Positions 4,966-36,927 of a stretch of DNA of 64,000 bases are shown piece after piece. Below the pieces are notes generated by a model that did no database searches, was not told the origin of the DNA, and saw only the letters and a program-made list of their open reading frames with translations. The DNA comes from Escherichia coli (lineage in GTDB: Bacteria; Pseudomonadota; Gammaproteobacteria; Enterobacterales; Enterobacteriaceae). The stretch is from the NCBI RefSeq assembly GCF_041248615.1, contig NZ_CP158426.1, one strand, 5' to 3'. The position numbers and the translations under genes are program-made. How positions within the stretch are numbered: position 1 is the stretch's first letter; every line of letters begins with the position of its first letter.

Positions 4966-5550
4966 TTATTGTTTGTTTTTTTCGTTCTGGTTGATGACAA
5001 ATTCAATGTAACTTTCGATCTTTGCCTTCTCTGTTTCAGGTAACAATGCGTAGCGCGAGCGGTCATAGTTGATAGTTGCAGGGTCATGCGGATGAATCAG
5101 TAGTTCATATCCGTGACGCCCGAATGCAGATGCAACATTCTCCAGGGTGGAAATGGAAACGCTGACTTCATTGTTTAACAGGCGGCTTATTGTCACCTGG
5201 GCGACGCCGGATGCGCGGTGAAGTTTTCCCTGAGTTGAAAGGTCGCGGCTTTCACTCATCCAGCGTTCCAGGTTGTGAGCTGCCAGCTGACCAATGTCGC
5301 TTGGGCCGACAGGCTGAAAACCTTCCTGAGAAAGCGAGCGATCGATATCAAGCCAGTTACGGGGTTTATTGGCGGCAGCTTCAATTTTTCGCGCAACCTG
5401 GTCGCCGATAACCTTCTTGCCAAGAGCCCAGCGGTTTACCAGATTTGCCTGAGTTCCAAGTTTTTCTGCCATCCGCGTCTGAACACCATTGAATTCACGG
5501 TCGATCAAGTCGTTGAGATTTTGCCTGCGGACGTCCTGGATACTTTTCAT
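4966..5550 (-). CDS. CI-like prophage repressor with two HTH (XRE-type) domains, no S24 peptidase domain
   Basis: 194 aa; two HTH-like segments (res ~10-65 and ~100-150); divergent from Cro-like gene; operator clusters on both sides. Confidence 0.6.
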   Translation of the reverse strand: MKSIQDVRRQNLNDLIDREFNGVQTRMAEKLGTQANLVNRWALGKKVIGDQVARKIEAAANKPRNWLDIDRSLSQEGFQPVGPSDIGQLAAHNLERWMSESRDLSTQGKLHRASGVAQVTISRLLNNEVSVSISTLENVASAFGRHGYELLIHPHDPATINYDRSRYALLPETEKAKIESYIEFVINQNEKNKQ

Positions 5551-14852: not shown

Positions 14853-14929
14853 TGGCGTGGCATGCAGGATTCGAACCTGCGACCAACCGCTTAGAAGGCG
14901 GTTGCTCTGTCCGACTGAGCTAATGCCAC
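14853..14929 (-). tRNA. tRNA-Arg (anticodon UCU), phage-encoded
   Basis: 77 nt; reverse complement GTGGCATTAGCTCAGTCGGACAGAGCAACCGCCTTCTAAGCGGTTGGTCGCAGGTTCGAATCCTGCATGCCACGCCA; 7-bp acceptor stem, T-loop GGTTCGAATCC, anticodon loop CTTCTAA, encoded CCA; close to E. coli argU in layout. Confidence 0.85.
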
Positions 14930-31860: not shown

Positions 31861-32020
31861 AACGAATGCCACCGCCGCCCGGGCGGGAATCCGCAGAACG
31901 CCCACCGCAGCGGGAGCCGTCAGCGGCAGTATCGCTGTCGTGCTGACAACGGCCGGCAAAGGCCTGAGTTGAAGCTACCAGAGACAACAAAACGAACAGT
32001 GCAGCAAATGCTTTTTTCAT
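31859..32020 (-). CDS. Possible small secreted protein (signal peptide), start at internal Met
   Basis: MKKAFAALFVLLSLVASTQAFA signal-like N-terminus; weak RBS. Confidence 0.3.
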   Translation of the reverse strand: MKKAFAALFVLLSLVASTQAFAGRCQHDSDTAADGSRCGGRSADSRPGGGGIR

Positions 32021-32094
32021 TGTGAAAAATTTCCATCTATAAGCCACCTCAATGTGGCGTCAATGAGTGTAGCACTGACTTTTGTTTCGTCCAC

Positions 32095-32117
32095 AAAAAA
32101 GCCCGCAGCGCGGGCTT
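32095..32117 (-). terminator. Rho-independent terminator of AT-rich moron gene
   Basis: Stem GCCCGC/GCGGGC with A6 on plus strand; overlaps stop codon. Confidence 0.65.
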
Positions 32118-32655
32118 ACCAAAACTTGTACCACGGGGATTTATCCTTCAATGGACAATCCTTCCATCGTGTGGCCAACCATTCATATTCTTTAAAATAT
32201 GTGTTTATGTTTTCTTTTTCTCTAATGGCTTGTATAAGAGGTAGCGCAATCTGATAGTTATTTACAACGGAGCTGTAAAATACTTCCTTAATCATGGTCT
32301 CATCATAAGTTTTCCGCTTCACGCTCACAGCCATGCGTTCGTAGAAACCTAGACAGTAAATTATTTCTCTCTTCTCTGTCTTTTCTTCATCCGTAAGATC
32401 AGCCTGCCCATTGCTTGGATACATATAAGAGCGGAATGATTTGTTCGATTCGTGAATGCGGCGCATAGTAGATAGGCCTTTCTTATAATCTACATCAAAC
32501 CTGCTTTCACCAAGGAATACTGAAGTGTGTACTTTTCTCGCTGTATTTACATTATAAATAATAGTAGCGATAGCTATGAACAAGCCAAGCGAAACCGCGA
32601 CTGCACTTACGATTTGAGCCACAGCCATGGCAAATTGCATTTCTTCACTTAACAC
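32116..32655 (-). CDS. AT-rich moron: membrane-anchored protein (N-terminal TM helix plus ~140-aa cytoplasmic domain); candidate superinfection-exclusion / abortive-infection factor
   Basis: 179 aa; GC visibly lower than flanking phage DNA; own GTG start with GGAGA SD, own terminator; lies in a position analogous to P22 sieA (between ejection genes and ant). Confidence 0.55.
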   Translation of the reverse strand: MLSEEMQFAMAVAQIVSAVAVSLGLFIAIATIIYNVNTARKVHTSVFLGESRFDVDYKKGLSTMRRIHESNKSFRSYMYPSNGQADLTDEEKTEKREIIYCLGFYERMAVSVKRKTYDETMIKEVFYSSVVNNYQIALPLIQAIREKENINTYFKEYEWLATRWKDCPLKDKSPWYKFW

Positions 32656-32784
32656 AAACTGTCTCCAGACATGAAAACGGGGCCTAATGGCCCCGTCATT
32701 AAACTATCCGAATGTTAAACGCCTTCGTACTCGTCAAATTTTCTCATGTGGGCTCCTCCTGTATCGGTGCCTAATCGCTATGGA

Positions 32785-32799
32785 TCACCCGTGAGGTAA
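32785..32799. promoter_or_regulatory. Operator-like palindrome TCACCCGTGAGGTAA
   Basis: TTACC-N5-GGTAA variant in gap between moron and ant genes. Confidence 0.4.
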
Positions 32800-32865
32800 T
32801 AGTAAGCTATTCACCTGCAATCTGTACAGAATTATTTAAAGGCACATCCCTGTGCCGCCGCCCCG

Positions 32866-33576
32866 TCAGAAGAACCCTGCCTTGTCGTTGATGTATTCCG
32901 CGTGAGTCTGGATATCACGCAGGCATTTGCTCACACCGACGATGTAGCAAAACATGGTGGTCAGCTCCGCCGCCGCGCCCGATACGTCGTGCCCGTCGTC
33001 CTGTAACTGGTTCAGCAGATTCATCAGCAGTGAGTTCTCCGTCAGGCCGAGAACACCAGACGGAGAATGAATCAGACTGCGGTAGCCGGGCTTCAGTGGG
33101 GCGCTGTAGGTTTTGTTCTCTATCTTCATTGCCTGCATCACTGCTGATGCTGTGGCGTTGGCTACCTGGTCGGCAACCATCTTTATGCGTTCTTCCTGCG
33201 GGAGCGAGTTTTTAATGTAACTTCCGGTGCGGCGGATCTGAGGAAGAACCTCACCTGTAACCCATTTACGAAAGCGGTAGGGGATAGTGCCTGGTGTCAC
33301 CGCATCGCGGCAGCGGAGGATCAGTGTGTAGAGGCCTGACTCGGAGATGATGTTGATCTCTTTTACTCGGCTGTCAAAAATCGCACGATGTTCATGCCCT
33401 ATGTTGAACATAGACCTTTCATCATCATCCAGTTTTTCAAGTGATTGGGTGACGTTTTGGATACGCAGCGCACTACAAACGTCTTGGGCTACAAACCATG
33501 GTTGGCCATCGATAATGATGGAACGGATAGGGTTAACAGATTCAAATTTGAAGATGGCAGTTTGAGCATTAGCCAT
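32866..33576 (-). CDS. Antirepressor (Bro-N domain plus C-terminal Ant-type domain)
   Basis: N-terminus FKFESVNPIRSIIIDGQPWFVAQDVCSAL...ISESGLYTLILR...VLPQIRRTGSY is a Bro-N signature; ATG 33576 has GGAG SD (track GTG start 33591 rejected). Confidence 0.7.
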   Translation of the reverse strand: MANAQTAIFKFESVNPIRSIIIDGQPWFVAQDVCSALRIQNVTQSLEKLDDDERSMFNIGHEHRAIFDSRVKEINIISESGLYTLILRCRDAVTPGTIPYRFRKWVTGEVLPQIRRTGSYIKNSLPQEERIKMVADQVANATASAVMQAMKIENKTYSAPLKPGYRSLIHSPSGVLGLTENSLLMNLLNQLQDDGHDVSGAAAELTTMFCYIVGVSKCLRDIQTHAEYINDKAGFF

Positions 33577-33594
33577 GGTGGTTATCTCCACTTA

Positions 33595-33608
33595 GTGATT
33601 TTAATCAC
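33595..33608. promoter_or_regulatory. Near-perfect 14-bp palindrome GTGATTTTAATCAC overlapping ant ribosome-binding region
   Basis: Read in sequence; 6/7 half-site symmetry; directly upstream of ant SD. Confidence 0.4.
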
Positions 33609-33731
33609 CACCGCAACGCCAATTACTGGTGGTGAACTGGACAAGGTTGGCGTACCGGCCTAAGTGGTACCGGCGTCCTTTCGGACCCCTGCCCAGCCCA
33701 CCATAATTCGGATATAGCTGTGCTTAACGCA

Positions 33732-33755
33732 TAAAAAAACCACGTCTGGCGTGGT
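33732..33755 (-). terminator. Rho-independent terminator downstream of small antirepressor-domain gene
   Basis: Stem ACCACG/CGTGGT with A7 run on plus strand. Confidence 0.6.
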
Positions 33756-33845
33756 ATGCGCCACTTAGTAACTCGGGACGCCAATCCCGGCACTGGATTT
33801 TGCCAGTGCCAGATTACTATGGCACAAGAGGAGTGCGATGTAAAT

Positions 33846-33860
33846 TTACCGCAAAGGTAA
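33846..33860. promoter_or_regulatory. Operator-like palindrome TTACCGCAAAGGTAA
   Basis: Perfect half-sites, 32 bp beyond the 3' end of gene 33892..34149. Confidence 0.45.
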
Positions 33861-33891
33861 ATATAAGCACTCCAGTTGGTAATTGCAAACC

Positions 33892-34149
33892 TTATCTGGT
33901 TTGTTTTCGTAATTGTTCGGCACAATAGTCGAGATGTGTTTGCAGATCCCGCATAGACATCTGTGAGCTGGTGACGTAGTTAATCAGTGCAGTCAGTTCG
34001 GCAAGTGGGCCATCGACATTAAATCCATCCTTATCGAGATCCCGGAGTAATTTCATCAAGTGCGATCCCTCCACCAGTGACCTGACGCCTCCCGGCGTGT
34101 GAATCCTTTCGGTAAATCCGTCTTCCAGTGGATAGTGATACTGCTGCAT
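33892..34149 (-). CDS. Small stand-alone antirepressor-domain protein (85 aa), LexA-box controlled
   Basis: ATG 34149 with SD GGAGAAG; sequence aligns with C-terminal ~65 aa of the Bro-N antirepressor (IH-P-GV...LM-LL..L..DG..V.G..AELT...YV...RD-QTH..Y); LexA box 22 bp upstream. Confidence 0.5.
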   Translation of the reverse strand: MQQYHYPLEDGFTERIHTPGGVRSLVEGSHLMKLLRDLDKDGFNVDGPLAELTALINYVTSSQMSMRDLQTHLDYCAEQLRKQTR

Positions 34150-34168
34150 CTTATCTTCTCCATGCAAT

Positions 34169-34188
34169 AACTGTATATTTATACAGTA
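34169..34188. promoter_or_regulatory. LexA (SOS) box AACTGTATATTTATACAGTA
   Basis: CTGT-N8-ACAG with AT-rich spacer, near consensus TACTGTATATATATACAGTA; immediately upstream of small antirepressor gene. Confidence 0.7.
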
Positions 34189-34225
34189 GCAAATAATTTG
34201 TTTGCTATCCAGCACGTTTTGCAAA

Positions 34226-34240
34226 TCACCTGAAAGGTAA
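34226..34240. promoter_or_regulatory. Operator-like palindrome TCACCTGAAAGGTAA in divergent region upstream of tailspike; followed by ATATGTGGTT-N5-GGTAAT (34271-34291)
   Basis: TTACC-N5-GGTAA variant; shares ATATCTATTCGTA 13-mer with site at 5981. Confidence 0.45.
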
Positions 34241-34344
34241 TATCTATTCGTATTTACAGTCTTTCTATCCATATGTGGTTTTTCAGGTAATAGAATAACC
34301 AGATATGCGGCGCAACGGGTGCTGCGACTATCTGGAGATTTAAC

Positions 34345-36927
34345 ATGACGGTCTCAACCGAAGTTGACCACAACGAATACACCGGTAACGGAGTTACGAC
34401 ATCGTTTCCGTATACTTTCCGCATTTTCAAAAAATCCGACCTGGTTGTTCAGGTGTCTGACCTGAACGGGAACGTAACAGAATTGGTTCTGGATACCGGT
34501 TATACAGTAACTGGAGCTGGCACTTATAGTGGCGGTTCTGTGGTTCTTCCGTCTCCGCTTGCTACTGGATGGAGAATTACGATAGATCGTGTGCTTGATG
34601 TAGTACAGGAGACAGATCTTCGCAATCAGGGAAAGTTTTTTCCCGAAGTGCATGAAGATGCCTTTGACTACCTGACGATGCTGATCCAGCAATGTTTTGG
34701 GTGGTTCAGACGTGCATTGATGAAACCATCTTTGCTTGCAAAATATTACGATGCAAAGCAAAACAGAATTTCTAACCTTGCAGATCCATCACTTGAGCAG
34801 GACGCTGTAAATAATCGCTCAATGCGTAATTATGTCGATGCTGCAATCGCCGGAGTTGTTGGTGGTTTTGGTTGGTTTATTCAGTATGGTTCTGGGGCAG
34901 TATACAGAACGTTCCAGGATAAGATGCGTGACGTTTATAATGTTAAAGATTATGGGGCGAAAGGTGACAATATTAACGATGATACGCTAGCATTTATTGC
35001 AGCAGCAAATGCTCTCGGAGAGGGCGGAAAGTTATATATTCCAACAGGAACATACAATTTAACTGGTCCAGTTAATATACCACCAGTGAATATGTGCGGC
35101 GATGGGCAGGGTGAAACAGTTATTGTGTTTGACAATACCACATCACCAAAAGACGGCTTTGTTTTCGCTGCGCCAACTAAATATGATATTGAATTTGGTT
35201 TAAGTCACCTTACAGTTAAAAGAAAAGGCGGGAATGGAGCTAATGCTATATATACCCCAAGAGGTGTCGGGCTTAACCATCTAAGACCAAAACCAACATT
35301 TAGATTTTTATCTTTCTGTTCTGAAACTGCAAATATTGATTCTGATGAATTCGCTCAGAAATACGGCTGGGAATGGTCTTTTAACTGTGGTGATAGTTGG
35401 CAGTTCACAATCGAACGCATTGATGCTGTTGGATGTTATCAGATAGCCAAAAGTTATAATGAACAGTTCCTTGATGGATTCATTCGCACCGCTCCAGAAG
35501 AGGGGATTTTATCAATGCGTGTGAGTGATATCACAACGCATAATGTTGCAAATTTTTTTGAAATTAAGCAGAAGACATATTTTACATTGCTTAATATTGA
35601 TGCCGCCAAGGCATTACGAGGCATTTACGACGCTGATGATCGTATATTTGAAACGAATCGTTATGCTTATGGTGAATGTATATGCACAAATGTTGGTATT
35701 AATGCCCAACTTGAACCAGTACGGCTGGATAACAGATTCCTGCTCATCATGAATGGTATGTTTATTCACCGCGCAGCAAAAGGTTACGATCATGGTCTGG
35801 AATGGGTTGGTCTTAAGCTTAGTCGTGCTCGCGTGTGTTCATTCCAGGGAATTGAGATCGGCACTGCCAGAGGGTATTCAGGGACTAAGAAAGGGATTGT
35901 TCTTGACGCCGGTGATGCAAATAACTTTACCAATGTAACTTTTGGTTTGCTTGATGTGTGCGCACAGATTGGCGATTCCAATTCACAGTATGGTGCCAAC
36001 TTTGCAACATGCTTTAATAATGTGAGCATTAATGCTGACACCGTATTGTTATTCGATTTGCAGCTATGCAGAAATTTCCATTGTGATGGATACGGAGCAT
36101 CTTCTGCCTACACTCTTCAGCAATTCCATAGGAACAGTGATGACACAAGCAATACTTATACATTTAGTAATGTAGGTAAACACAATCTCTACACTGACAA
36201 CTCGCTGTACCTACATAATTCTGCTTCGCTGGAGAACGGGAAGAATATACGTATTGATACACGAAACGGATTATCTGTTAGCACTCAAGCAGATACTGGT
36301 TCCGCAGGAAATAACTTCCTTATAATTCGTAGGACTGGTGTTGATATAGACAGTTTTGAGTTAAGGACTCGCAGTACAGCAGGTGCATATACATATATTA
36401 ATACACCTGAAACTCATTTTTCTGGCCTTATAAAACCAACTGTTGATAATGTTAACTCAAACGGAACATCAGCATTTCGATGGTCACAGGTATACGCTGG
36501 TACTGGCAGTATCAACACGTCGAATGAAGAGCTGAAATTGCGTATTGAGGCTGACGAGAAAACAACAGAATCAGAGCGTCTTGCTGCGCTTGAAATAAAG
36601 GAAAATATCTGGAGGTTTAAATTTAAAGATGCAGTAAAGATCAAGAGTGATGGCGCTCGGATTCATTTCGGTGTTGGTGCACAAACTGTAGGTAATATTC
36701 TCAGAAAATACGGTCTTGACCCTAATAACTATGCGTTCTGGTGTTATGATGAATGGGATGATATTTATGCTCCAGAAGTATTGATTAGGAGTGTTAAAAA
36801 CAATGAAACAGGAGAGTGGTACGACGAGGAATATTACACAGGAAGGCAGATTATTATTAAACCTGCTGGCTATCAGTATGGTATCAGATACGAGGAACTT
36901 CTGATGTTTATTCTTATGTTTATTTAA
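34345..36927 (+). CDS. Tailspike / tail fibre protein with conserved N-terminal attachment domain and AT-rich exchangeable distal part
   Basis: 860 aa; N-terminal ~190 aa at phage-typical GC, remainder AT-rich; Gly/Asn-rich beta-helix-like repeats; C-terminal segment possibly a chaperone-like domain. Confidence 0.7.
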   Translation: MTVSTEVDHNEYTGNGVTTSFPYTFRIFKKSDLVVQVSDLNGNVTELVLDTGYTVTGAGTYSGGSVVLPSPLATGWRITIDRVLDVVQETDLRNQGKFFPEVHEDAFDYLTMLIQQCFGWFRRALMKPSLLAKYYDAKQNRISNLADPSLEQDAVNNRSMRNYVDAAIAGVVGGFGWFIQYGSGAVYRTFQDKMRDVYNVKDYGAKGDNINDDTLAFIAAANALGEGGKLYIPTGTYNLTGPVNIPPVNMCGDGQGETVIVFDNTTSPKDGFVFAAPTKYDIEFGLSHLTVKRKGGNGANAIYTPRGVGLNHLRPKPTFRFLSFCSETANIDSDEFAQKYGWEWSFNCGDSWQFTIERIDAVGCYQIAKSYNEQFLDGFIRTAPEEGILSMRVSDITTHNVANFFEIKQKTYFTLLNIDAAKALRGIYDADDRIFETNRYAYGECICTNVGINAQLEPVRLDNRFLLIMNGMFIHRAAKGYDHGLEWVGLKLSRARVCSFQGIEIGTARGYSGTKKGIVLDAGDANNFTNVTFGLLDVCAQIGDSNSQYGANFATCFNNVSINADTVLLFDLQLCRNFHCDGYGASSAYTLQQFHRNSDDTSNTYTFSNVGKHNLYTDNSLYLHNSASLENGKNIRIDTRNGLSVSTQADTGSAGNNFLIIRRTGVDIDSFELRTRSTAGAYTYINTPETHFSGLIKPTVDNVNSNGTSAFRWSQVYAGTGSINTSNEELKLRIEADEKTTESERLAALEIKENIWRFKFKDAVKIKSDGARIHFGVGAQTVGNILRKYGLDPNNYAFWCYDEWDDIYAPEVLIRSVKNNETGEWYDEEYYTGRQIIIKPAGYQYGIRYEELLMFILMFI

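Follow-up and report, generated by a model that had tools for sequence, protein, structure and literature searches.

A probable P1/P7-type immI module, with C4 and isrK-type RNA elements, in the leader of a Bro-N antirepressor gene of an Escherichia coli prophage

In phage P1 the synthesis of Ant is repressed by the c4 RNA (PMC8546580; PMC12197685). The GenBank record of P1 gives, in this order, two promoters, the elements a1 and b1, the 77-nucleotide (nt) C4 RNA, a2, b2 (labelled "repression of icd ant translation") and icd; in P1 and P7 specificity is set by the a and b words. In this type of immI the c4 RNA is transcribed together with ant, from the same strand and upstream of it, and after processing works in trans on the ribosome-binding site. 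In Gifsy-1, the isrK promoter drives the downstream antirepressor gene and part of the transcripts pass the isrK terminator (PMC4825925, Hershko-Shalev et al. 2016). The mRNA made by read-through is translationally silent; the translation of AnrP rises about 140-fold when IsrK is supplied in trans; and STnc1160, an RNA of about 80 nt that was compared to the P4 CI RNA, is processed from the read-through transcript (PMC4825925). The locus described here is the 315 nt in front of the antirepressor gene ant of a prophage in Escherichia coli NRZ14408, read on the minus (coding) strand and called the leader below. It lies in a stretch of 64 kb (chromosome positions 1440001-1504000), which is the window of this report. 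The leader is very probably an immI module of the P1/P7 type, in which a c4 antisense RNA and an isrK-type leader control the translation of ant.

The original prediction for this leader had taken P22 immI as its model and suggested a dedicated regulator, either of the Mnt/Arc type or based on RNA. P22 immI is characterized by the Mnt and Arc proteins and the cis-antisense sar RNA. Of the two options the RNA-based one is borne out by Rfam matches and by covariation, while the Mnt/Arc one is left without any ribbon-helix-helix open reading frame (ORF), and with no sar match either the locus is to be compared with P1/P7 immI rather than with P22. The organisation of the P22 region is shared in part: the prophage is of the podovirus type and has its antirepressor gene next to the tailspike gene, and a small RNA is predicted to exert post-transcriptional control at the ribosome-binding site of ant. 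What is not shared are the Mnt/Arc genes and their operators and sar; instead, an RNA of the same strand, upstream of ant, is predicted to act in trans through two short loops.

The Rfam search covered positions 32000-35000 on both strands with E values up to 1 and was repeated on the whole window. The isrK family (RF01394) matches at 33733-33809 on the minus strand with 67.2 bits against a gathering threshold of 50, full-length over model positions 1-77. The C4 antisense RNA family (RF01695) matches at 33625-33708, also on the minus strand, with 66 bits against a threshold of 45 (E 6.4e-12 locally and 1.4e-10 in the whole window). In the whole-window search both are still above gathering and the sole other match is a tRNA. 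A terminator scan, independent of Rfam, places an intrinsic terminator between b1 and c4, with the stem at 33755-33739 followed by a U-run. The minimum-energy fold of c4 (-43.6 kcal/mol, z -5.0) has a long closing stem around two hairpins. The elements of the leader, and the gene behind them, are as follows:

33816-33844, minus strand: candidate isrK/c4/ant promoter, with -35 TTTACA (33844-33839), 17 nt, TG, and -10 CATAGT (33821-33816)
33733-33809, minus strand: isrK-type RNA, with hairpin 1 (33809-33790), hairpin 2 carrying a1 in its loop, b1 and the terminator; counterpart of the P1 a1/b1 leader
33778-33784, minus strand: a1 (UUGGCGU), in the loop of isrK hairpin 2
33761-33768, minus strand: b1 (CUAAGUGG), upstream of c4
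about 33702-33628, minus strand: predicted mature c4 RNA of 75 nt, by homology with the annotated 77-nt P1 C4; ACCA follows the stem
33660-33667, minus strand: b' (CCACUUAG), in the loop of the second c4 hairpin, with flanking stems GCCGG/CCGGU
33647-33653, minus strand: a' (ACGCCAA), in the single-stranded c4 junction between hairpin 2 and the closing stem
33616-33622, minus strand: a2 (UUGGCGU), the complement of a'
33595-33608: near-palindrome GTGATTTTAATCAC, on the minus strand as RNA GUGAU-UAAA-AUCAC, a small hairpin between a2 and b2
33588-33595, minus strand: b2 (CUAAGUGG in the mRNA), the complement of b', overlapping the GGAG ribosome-binding site, 11 nt before the AUG
33586-33589, minus strand: Shine-Dalgarno sequence GGAG as read from the sequence, 9 nt before the ATG, its first two bases inside b2
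32866-33576, minus strand: ant, the Bro-N antirepressor gene, a PGAP coding sequence of 236 amino acids with its ATG at 33576-33574

The order of these elements on one strand is that of P1/P7 immI: promoter, a1, b1, c4, a2, a small hairpin, b2 over the ribosome-binding site, and the regulated gene. The c4 RNA has the P1 architecture of a long stem and two hairpins, with b' in loop 2, a' in the junction and an ACC tail. The window and P1 agree in the spacing from -10 to a1, 32 nt (for the P1 promoter P1c4/P51b), and in that from b2 to the AUG, 11 nt, while a2 begins 4 nt after the post-stem ACC in P1 and 6 nt after it in the window. The ACC or ACCA behind the closing stem has the form of a tRNA-like 3' end. 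Hartmann et al. reportedly found in 1995 that RNase P processes the C4 RNA of P1, and the tRNA-like end would be consistent with such processing here.

The differences from P1 lie in the words, the target and the carrier. The P1 a and b words are TTGACAG and GTTAGTG, and P1 is a plasmid prophage whereas the element in the window is an integrated epsilon15-like podovirus. The c4 promoter of P1 carries a C1 operator; here a candidate operator of the form TTACC-N5-GGTAA is found. In P1 the leader ORF icd is the target of c4 and the translation of ant is coupled to it, whereas here b2 lies on the ribosome-binding site of ant itself. No leader ORF resembling icd or orf45 of Gifsy-1 is found between c4 and ant: a single ATG follows the terminator, and a stop comes two codons after it; c4 is therefore predicted to act directly on the ribosome-binding site of ant. 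Several relatives share this direct c4-ant layout and others have first ORFs of 62-81 amino acids.

The Gifsy-1 genome gives matches to isrK (79.3 bits), to the c4-a1b1 family (48.1 bits) and to C4 (69 bits), in this order and directly upstream of STM2616/AnrP. The C4 match is full-length (34131-34214, minus strand, of the Gifsy-1 sequence L126) and corresponds to the published 'orf45'/STnc1160 region. The window shares with Gifsy-1 the three Rfam matches in order before an antirepressor-like gene, the two hairpins and the terminator of isrK, and the a words TTGGCGT/ACGCCAA. It differs in the b word, which is ATCACCG in Gifsy-1, and in the downstream protein, which is of the MTTQISVE type there and Bro-N here; furthermore, orf45 of Gifsy-1 runs through c4 and overlaps the anrP start (ATGA), and no such ORF is present here. 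Mention of 'phage P1' was not found in the Gifsy-1 IsrK paper (PMC4825925), and the literatures on P1 c4 and on IsrK appear to be unconnected. From the likeness of the sequences IsrK would be an a1/b1 decoy for a c4-type repressor. By homology with Gifsy-1, the isrK-type RNA of the window may bind Hfq and activate the translation of the antirepressor in trans (PMC4825925).

The repeats that first drew attention to the leader are explained by these elements. The 8-mer CCACTTAG is present, as originally described, on the plus strand at 33588-33595 and 33761-33768 and inverted at 33660-33667; these are its only three copies in the 64 kb and they lie within 181 bp. A second triplet had been overlooked, with TTGGCGT at 33778-33784 and 33616-33622 (minus strand) and ACGCCAA at 33647-33653. 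The predicted duplexes are exact, with -12.6 kcal/mol for b'/b2 (8 nt) and -10.3 kcal/mol for a'/a2 (7 nt). The two copies of GTACCGGC that had been taken for a direct repeat are found at 33652-33659 and 33667-33674, the first one base away from the 33651 given earlier, but they are really the two arms of the b' hairpin (GCCGG/CCGGU), whose CCGG core is self-complementary.

The proposed mechanism follows from this arrangement and from the described systems. Transcription would start near 33809 on the minus strand, a position to which the promoter scan, the P1-like distance from -10 to a1 and position 1 of the isrK model, as in Gifsy-1, all point. The first 77 nt would be an isrK-type RNA that contains a1 and b1 and ends at the intrinsic terminator; its anatomy is present in the leader and the transcripts are predicted. 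Read-through would produce the c4 RNA of about 75 nt, probably released as in P1 by RNase P and 3' trimming. The c4 RNA is predicted to expose a' (ACGCCAA) and b' (CCACUUAG) for pairing with a2 and b2 in the ant mRNA, whose complementarity, positions and covariation are observed. Because b2 overlaps the GGAG ribosome-binding site, the 30S subunit would be kept off and the Bro-N antirepressor would not be made, as the repression in P1 suggests. The upstream a1/b1 RNA may pair with the same c4 loops and act as a decoy that relieves repression, as its homologue IsrK would for AnrP. The exact a and b sequences would set immunity specificity as they do in P1 and P7, and phages with other a and b words would escape.

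A c4-like RNA could instead act mainly by premature termination of transcription, as the P4 CI RNA and the N15 CA RNA do, and not by a block of translation. For the homologous STnc1160 RNA this possibility is raised in the Gifsy-1 study (PMC4825925), and pairing of c4 with a1/b1 could alter read-through at the intrinsic terminator between b1 and c4. However, there is no terminator-like structure between c4 and ant, in nearly all variants the ribosome-binding site and b2 overlap and the start codon lies 7-16 nt further on, which fits translational control as in P1, and constitutive STnc1160 did not act like a termination factor in Gifsy-1 (PMC4825925). Termination as the main mode of action is unlikely.

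The comparison with relatives shows that the a and b words change together with their targets. A viral contig collection was scanned with a pattern taken solely from the 5' stem of c4, and hence blind to the a and b elements; it gave 88 modules with a c4-like fold and 47 distinct c4 sequences. An exact complement of at least 7 nt is found for b2 in 41 of the 47 variants at +35 to +43 after c4 (in all 47 when at least 6 nt are required), for a2 in 46 at +8 to +10, for a1 in 42 at about -78 from c4 and for b1 in 30 at about -62. When partners are swapped, each c4 being matched with the flanks of other modules, the match rates are only 4-9%. The words themselves are diverse, with about 32 b2 words and about 14 a2 words, and the start codon most often lies 10 nt after b2. 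The c4 consensus, built from 38 variants, contains 26 pairs, and compensatory changes on both sides are seen in 10; its outer stem columns are fixed by the search pattern and are hence uninformative. ACC follows the closing stem in 45 of the 47 variants. Two loci (L054 and L066) have the b words of the window and a different a word, and the a and b elements therefore reassort. The original prediction would have been contradicted by repeats that are not conserved in relatives; what is found is that a' and b' co-vary with their targets at fixed positions in the 47 variants. Conservation as a relationship and not as a sequence is, judged from these alignments, the signature of RNA-RNA recognition.

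The same comparison bears on the possibility of an inactive remnant, a module that came down from a P1-like ancestor and has no regulatory effect here any more. Its function is predicted from sequence, and the cassette is absent from the phages SPC32H and epsilon15 and so is dispensable for this type of phage. Against this, complementarity is perfect for all six recognition elements, and neither the c4 stem nor the terminator nor the ORF is broken. The cassette shows 99-100% conservation in phage HEMP4 and across many E. coli genomes, and the coordinated changes of a and b words in relatives require ongoing selection. A remnant is very unlikely.

The first genes after the c4 modules fall into at least four unrelated classes (loci L003-L122): icd-like ORFs of 62-81 amino acids, starters of the MATIPT/MATVPT type of about 120 and about 181 amino acids, MTTQISVE starters of 179-244 amino acids, and Bro-N. 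The c4 RNA module looks like a portable cassette when these loci are compared. Another group of 13 c4 modules (for example L003, L011, L012 and L033) has CTGTAAGTAACCACAG conserved 364 nt upstream of c4, which fits the LexA-box form CTGT-N8-ACAG with a centre that is not AT-rich.

The near-palindrome before b2 had been thought to overlap the ribosome-binding region of ant. The 14 bp are indeed a near-palindrome at 33595-33608, but they end at 33595, share one base with b2 and do not cover the GGAG at 33586-33589. As a protein operator of the P22 immI type, GTGATTTTAATCAC would bind a small Mnt/Arc-like repressor that shuts off the transcription or translation of ant, and the palindrome does adjoin the ribosome-binding site. 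The window holds, however, no second copy of it, and the corresponding place in phiV10, the nearest annotated relative, is not palindromic. The palindrome is also part of the transcribed leader, past the predicted promoter and terminator. The original remark that no obvious small ribbon-helix-helix gene is present holds: the four leader ORFs (34-100 amino acids) have no Pfam match at E up to 1, nor does any other ORF near the leader, and hence there is no candidate for such a repressor. In P1 an RNA hairpin of unrelated sequence, CAGGUU-GUUA-AACCUG, stands between a2 and b2 where the window has GUGAU-UAAA-AUCAC, and the 5' arm of the palindrome is explained as part of the conserved element GGUGGUGA. 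A protein operator at this place is highly improbable and was rejected on the lack of other copies, of a ribbon-helix-helix ORF and of the palindrome in phiV10.

A conserved RNA hairpin before b2 is itself weakly supported by the alignments. A hairpin of at least 4 bp that ends within 2 nt of b2 is found in 24 of the 41 distinct a2-b2 spacers, and the mean z of the spacer hairpins is -0.35, no better than that of shuffled sequence. The Bro-N subgroup has an alternative stem, GGUGGU/ACCACC versus AGUGGU/ACCACU, with some compensatory change; it pairs GGUGGUGA with the bases just before the AUG, loops out b2 and the Shine-Dalgarno sequence, and overlaps the palindrome by two bases. Neither the palindrome hairpin nor the alternative stem supports a protein operator. 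The GGUGGUGA element (33605-33612, minus strand, at the same place in most related loci) follows a2 on the 3' side. It is a copy of the 5' strand of the closing stem of c4 and a complement of the 3' strand of that stem, UUCACCACC; in P1 and in locus L080 it changes together with the stem. Before the transcript is processed, this element could pair in an alternative helix that leaves a2 in the loop.

A cis-antisense RNA like sar of P22 would be a small plus-strand RNA across the ribosome-binding site of ant that pairs with the ant mRNA. Nothing specific favours it apart from the analogy with P22 drawn in the original prediction. No sar or other plus-strand Rfam family matches in 32000-35000 at E up to 1, there is no promoter-like site on the plus strand of the leader, and an RNA of the same strand acting in trans fully explains the repeats. 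Such an antisense RNA is the least probable of the alternatives, with next to no chance of being right.

The control of ant by a c4-type RNA has several points against it. The match to the c4-a1b1 family (RF03163, 33770-33822, minus strand) has 43.5 bits, just under the gathering threshold of 46.7. Dinucleotide shuffling of the window yields a triple of a word, its reverse complement and the word again, each of 8 nt and within 200 bp, in 24 of 100 cases, and such a triple was rejected as evidence of significance by itself; together with a parallel 7-mer triple it occurs in 3 of 100, and the significance of the elements is taken from the Rfam matches and the covariation in relatives, not from the 8-mer triple alone. 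The b'/b2 duplex is only 8 bp long and covers two of the four Shine-Dalgarno bases. At this locus we infer the promoter, the termination, the processing and the repression alike. The Gifsy-1 study explains regulation by alternative mRNA folds and orf45 translation, not by a c4-type repressor (PMC4825925); since there is no orf45 here, that result is not directly transferable. The regulated protein does not appear to be homologous to P1 Ant, which is an ANT/KilAC domain protein and to which no homology of the ant product was found, and its antirepressor activity is read from family names and from similarity to the Ant domain of SPC32H.

The ant gene had been described as full length; its ORF is intact, and its Bro-N domain is confirmed by Pfam (PF02498, residues 17-112, E 3.4e-19, 69.7 bits against a cut-off of 25.6). 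Its product matches PHROG 130, 'anti-repressor Ant' (E 3.3e-55), and its C-terminal domain (residues 155-228, 74 residues) is 43% identical to the product of the small upstream gene ORF85 (E 4e-20). By sequence the protein is Bro-N fused to an Ant-like domain, a paralogue of the small Ant. The NCBIfam search of the ant product and of ORF85 gave no matches. Directly after the ant stop, the hairpin GGCACA-GGGA-UGUGCC followed by UUUAAAUAAUU (32841-32856, minus strand) is found here and in relatives; it is likely a weak terminator of the ant transcript, below the threshold of the terminator scan. Further downstream is a DUF4760 gene (32116-32655, minus strand) with an operator-like site, TCACCCGTGAGGTAA (32785-32799), in front of it. 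SPC32H has no annotated gene at this position, and the DUF4760 gene is possibly an accessory gene of the moron type.

The element that carries the module is an epsilon15/phiV10-like prophage of the genus Uetakevirus. Its leader is 99.4% identical to that of phage HEMP4 and about 80% identical to that of phiV10, where b' is CCUUUUAG. The RNA genes are unlabelled both by PGAP and in the phiV10 record, which lists only a "terminator". The other features of the prophage that bear on ant are:

33846-33860: perfect inverted repeat TTACC-N5-GGTAA, abutting the -35 of the isrK promoter; candidate Rep operator
33892-34149, minus strand: ORF85, small antirepressor gene of 85 amino acids, the product 86.7% identical to that of SPC32H 'ant'; PHROG 450; hypothetical according to PGAP
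34171-34186: LexA-type box CTGTATAAATATACAG (minus reading), near-consensus, in the ORF85 promoter
4966-5550, minus strand: HTH_3 protein gene, Rep-like, 194 amino acids, 42% identical to SPC32H Rep, with no peptidase S24 domain
4832, 4894, 5606, 5654, 5991, 7937, 7999, 12106, 12124, 15252, 32785, 33846 and 34226: the 15-bp sites of the form TTACC-N5-GGTAA

Kim and Ryu reportedly described in J Virol in 2013 that the LexA-controlled Ant of SPC32H inactivates the non-cleavable repressor Rep. A review likewise has the small Ant of SPC32H under LexA control and inactivating a non-cleavable repressor (PMC7380047). The window shares with SPC32H the pair ORF85/Ant, the LexA-type box, a Rep-like helix-turn-helix protein and abundant TTACC-N5-GGTAA sites. 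In SPC32H, by contrast, the isrK-c4-Bro-N cassette is missing and ant is followed directly by a membrane-protein gene; the cassette is therefore an insertion in the E. coli lineage. The protein encoded at 4966-5550 is likely, from its sequence, the prophage repressor and the target of both antirepressors. The leader itself has no LexA box, in agreement with the earlier reading: CTGT-N8-ACAG does not occur there, and the only AT-rich one in the window is that at 34171-34186, which keeps a position of -484 to -487 from c4 in more than 10 related loci. A tRNA gene (14856-14929, minus strand, 73.3 bits) lies inside the prophage, and SPC32H has a tRNA-Arg gene on the same strand relative to its neighbours.

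With at most one mismatch, TTACC-N5-GGTAA has 16 sites in the window against 1.09 expected, and the 13 copies in the prophage are all intergenic and clustered round the repressor gene. SPC32H (L125) has 18 sites against 0.55 expected, clustered on both sides of rep. Upstream of isrK in relatives the arms are conserved and the spacer is variable. The motif is probably, on this distribution, the operator of Rep in Uetakevirus phages, spread over the genome somewhat as C1 operators are in P1, and its position at the isrK promoter would parallel that of the C1 operator at the c4 promoter of P1. The copy at 33846-33860 also covers the -10/+1 region of a second candidate promoter, TTGCAA-17-TATATT (33888-33860). 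The terminator scan finds no minus-strand terminator between 33892 and 33755.

A three-layer induction circuit of LexA, Rep and c4, in which SOS read-through supplies the decoy that unlocks a second antirepressor, is a tentative and rather doubtful proposal. DNA damage would remove LexA from the ORF85 promoter, so that the small Ant of the SPC32H type would be made and would inactivate Rep. Transcription from the LexA-controlled promoter and from the promoter covered by the Rep operator (33860-33888) would then enter the isrK element, and a flood of a1/b1 decoy RNA and ant mRNA would titrate the constitutive c4 RNA. The second antirepressor, which combines Bro-N with a paralogue of the Rep-binding domain of the small Ant, would thereby be unlocked, and induction would be locked in or extended to co-resident prophages. 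If the circuit is true, the c4 module would serve as a 'threshold' device that is portable and has taken up the operator of the phage that now hosts it, and the circuit would not yet have been described as such.

The locus is a previously unannotated instance of a known mechanism and holds no new principle. Judged from the sequence, its minor variations are the missing leader ORF, the different cargo and the candidate operator of the host phage at the promoter. The finding explains an unannotated gap of 315 bp that is present in 532 of 5426 complete E. coli genomes, or about a tenth. The literatures on P1 c4 and on Gifsy-1 IsrK turn out to describe one module, and the IsrK results could be re-read as those of a decoy against an antisense RNA. 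The survey of relatives has a bearing on heteroimmunity and on the cross-talk between prophages, for it shows a portable cassette that comes in dozens of specificities and precedes first genes of at least four unrelated kinds.

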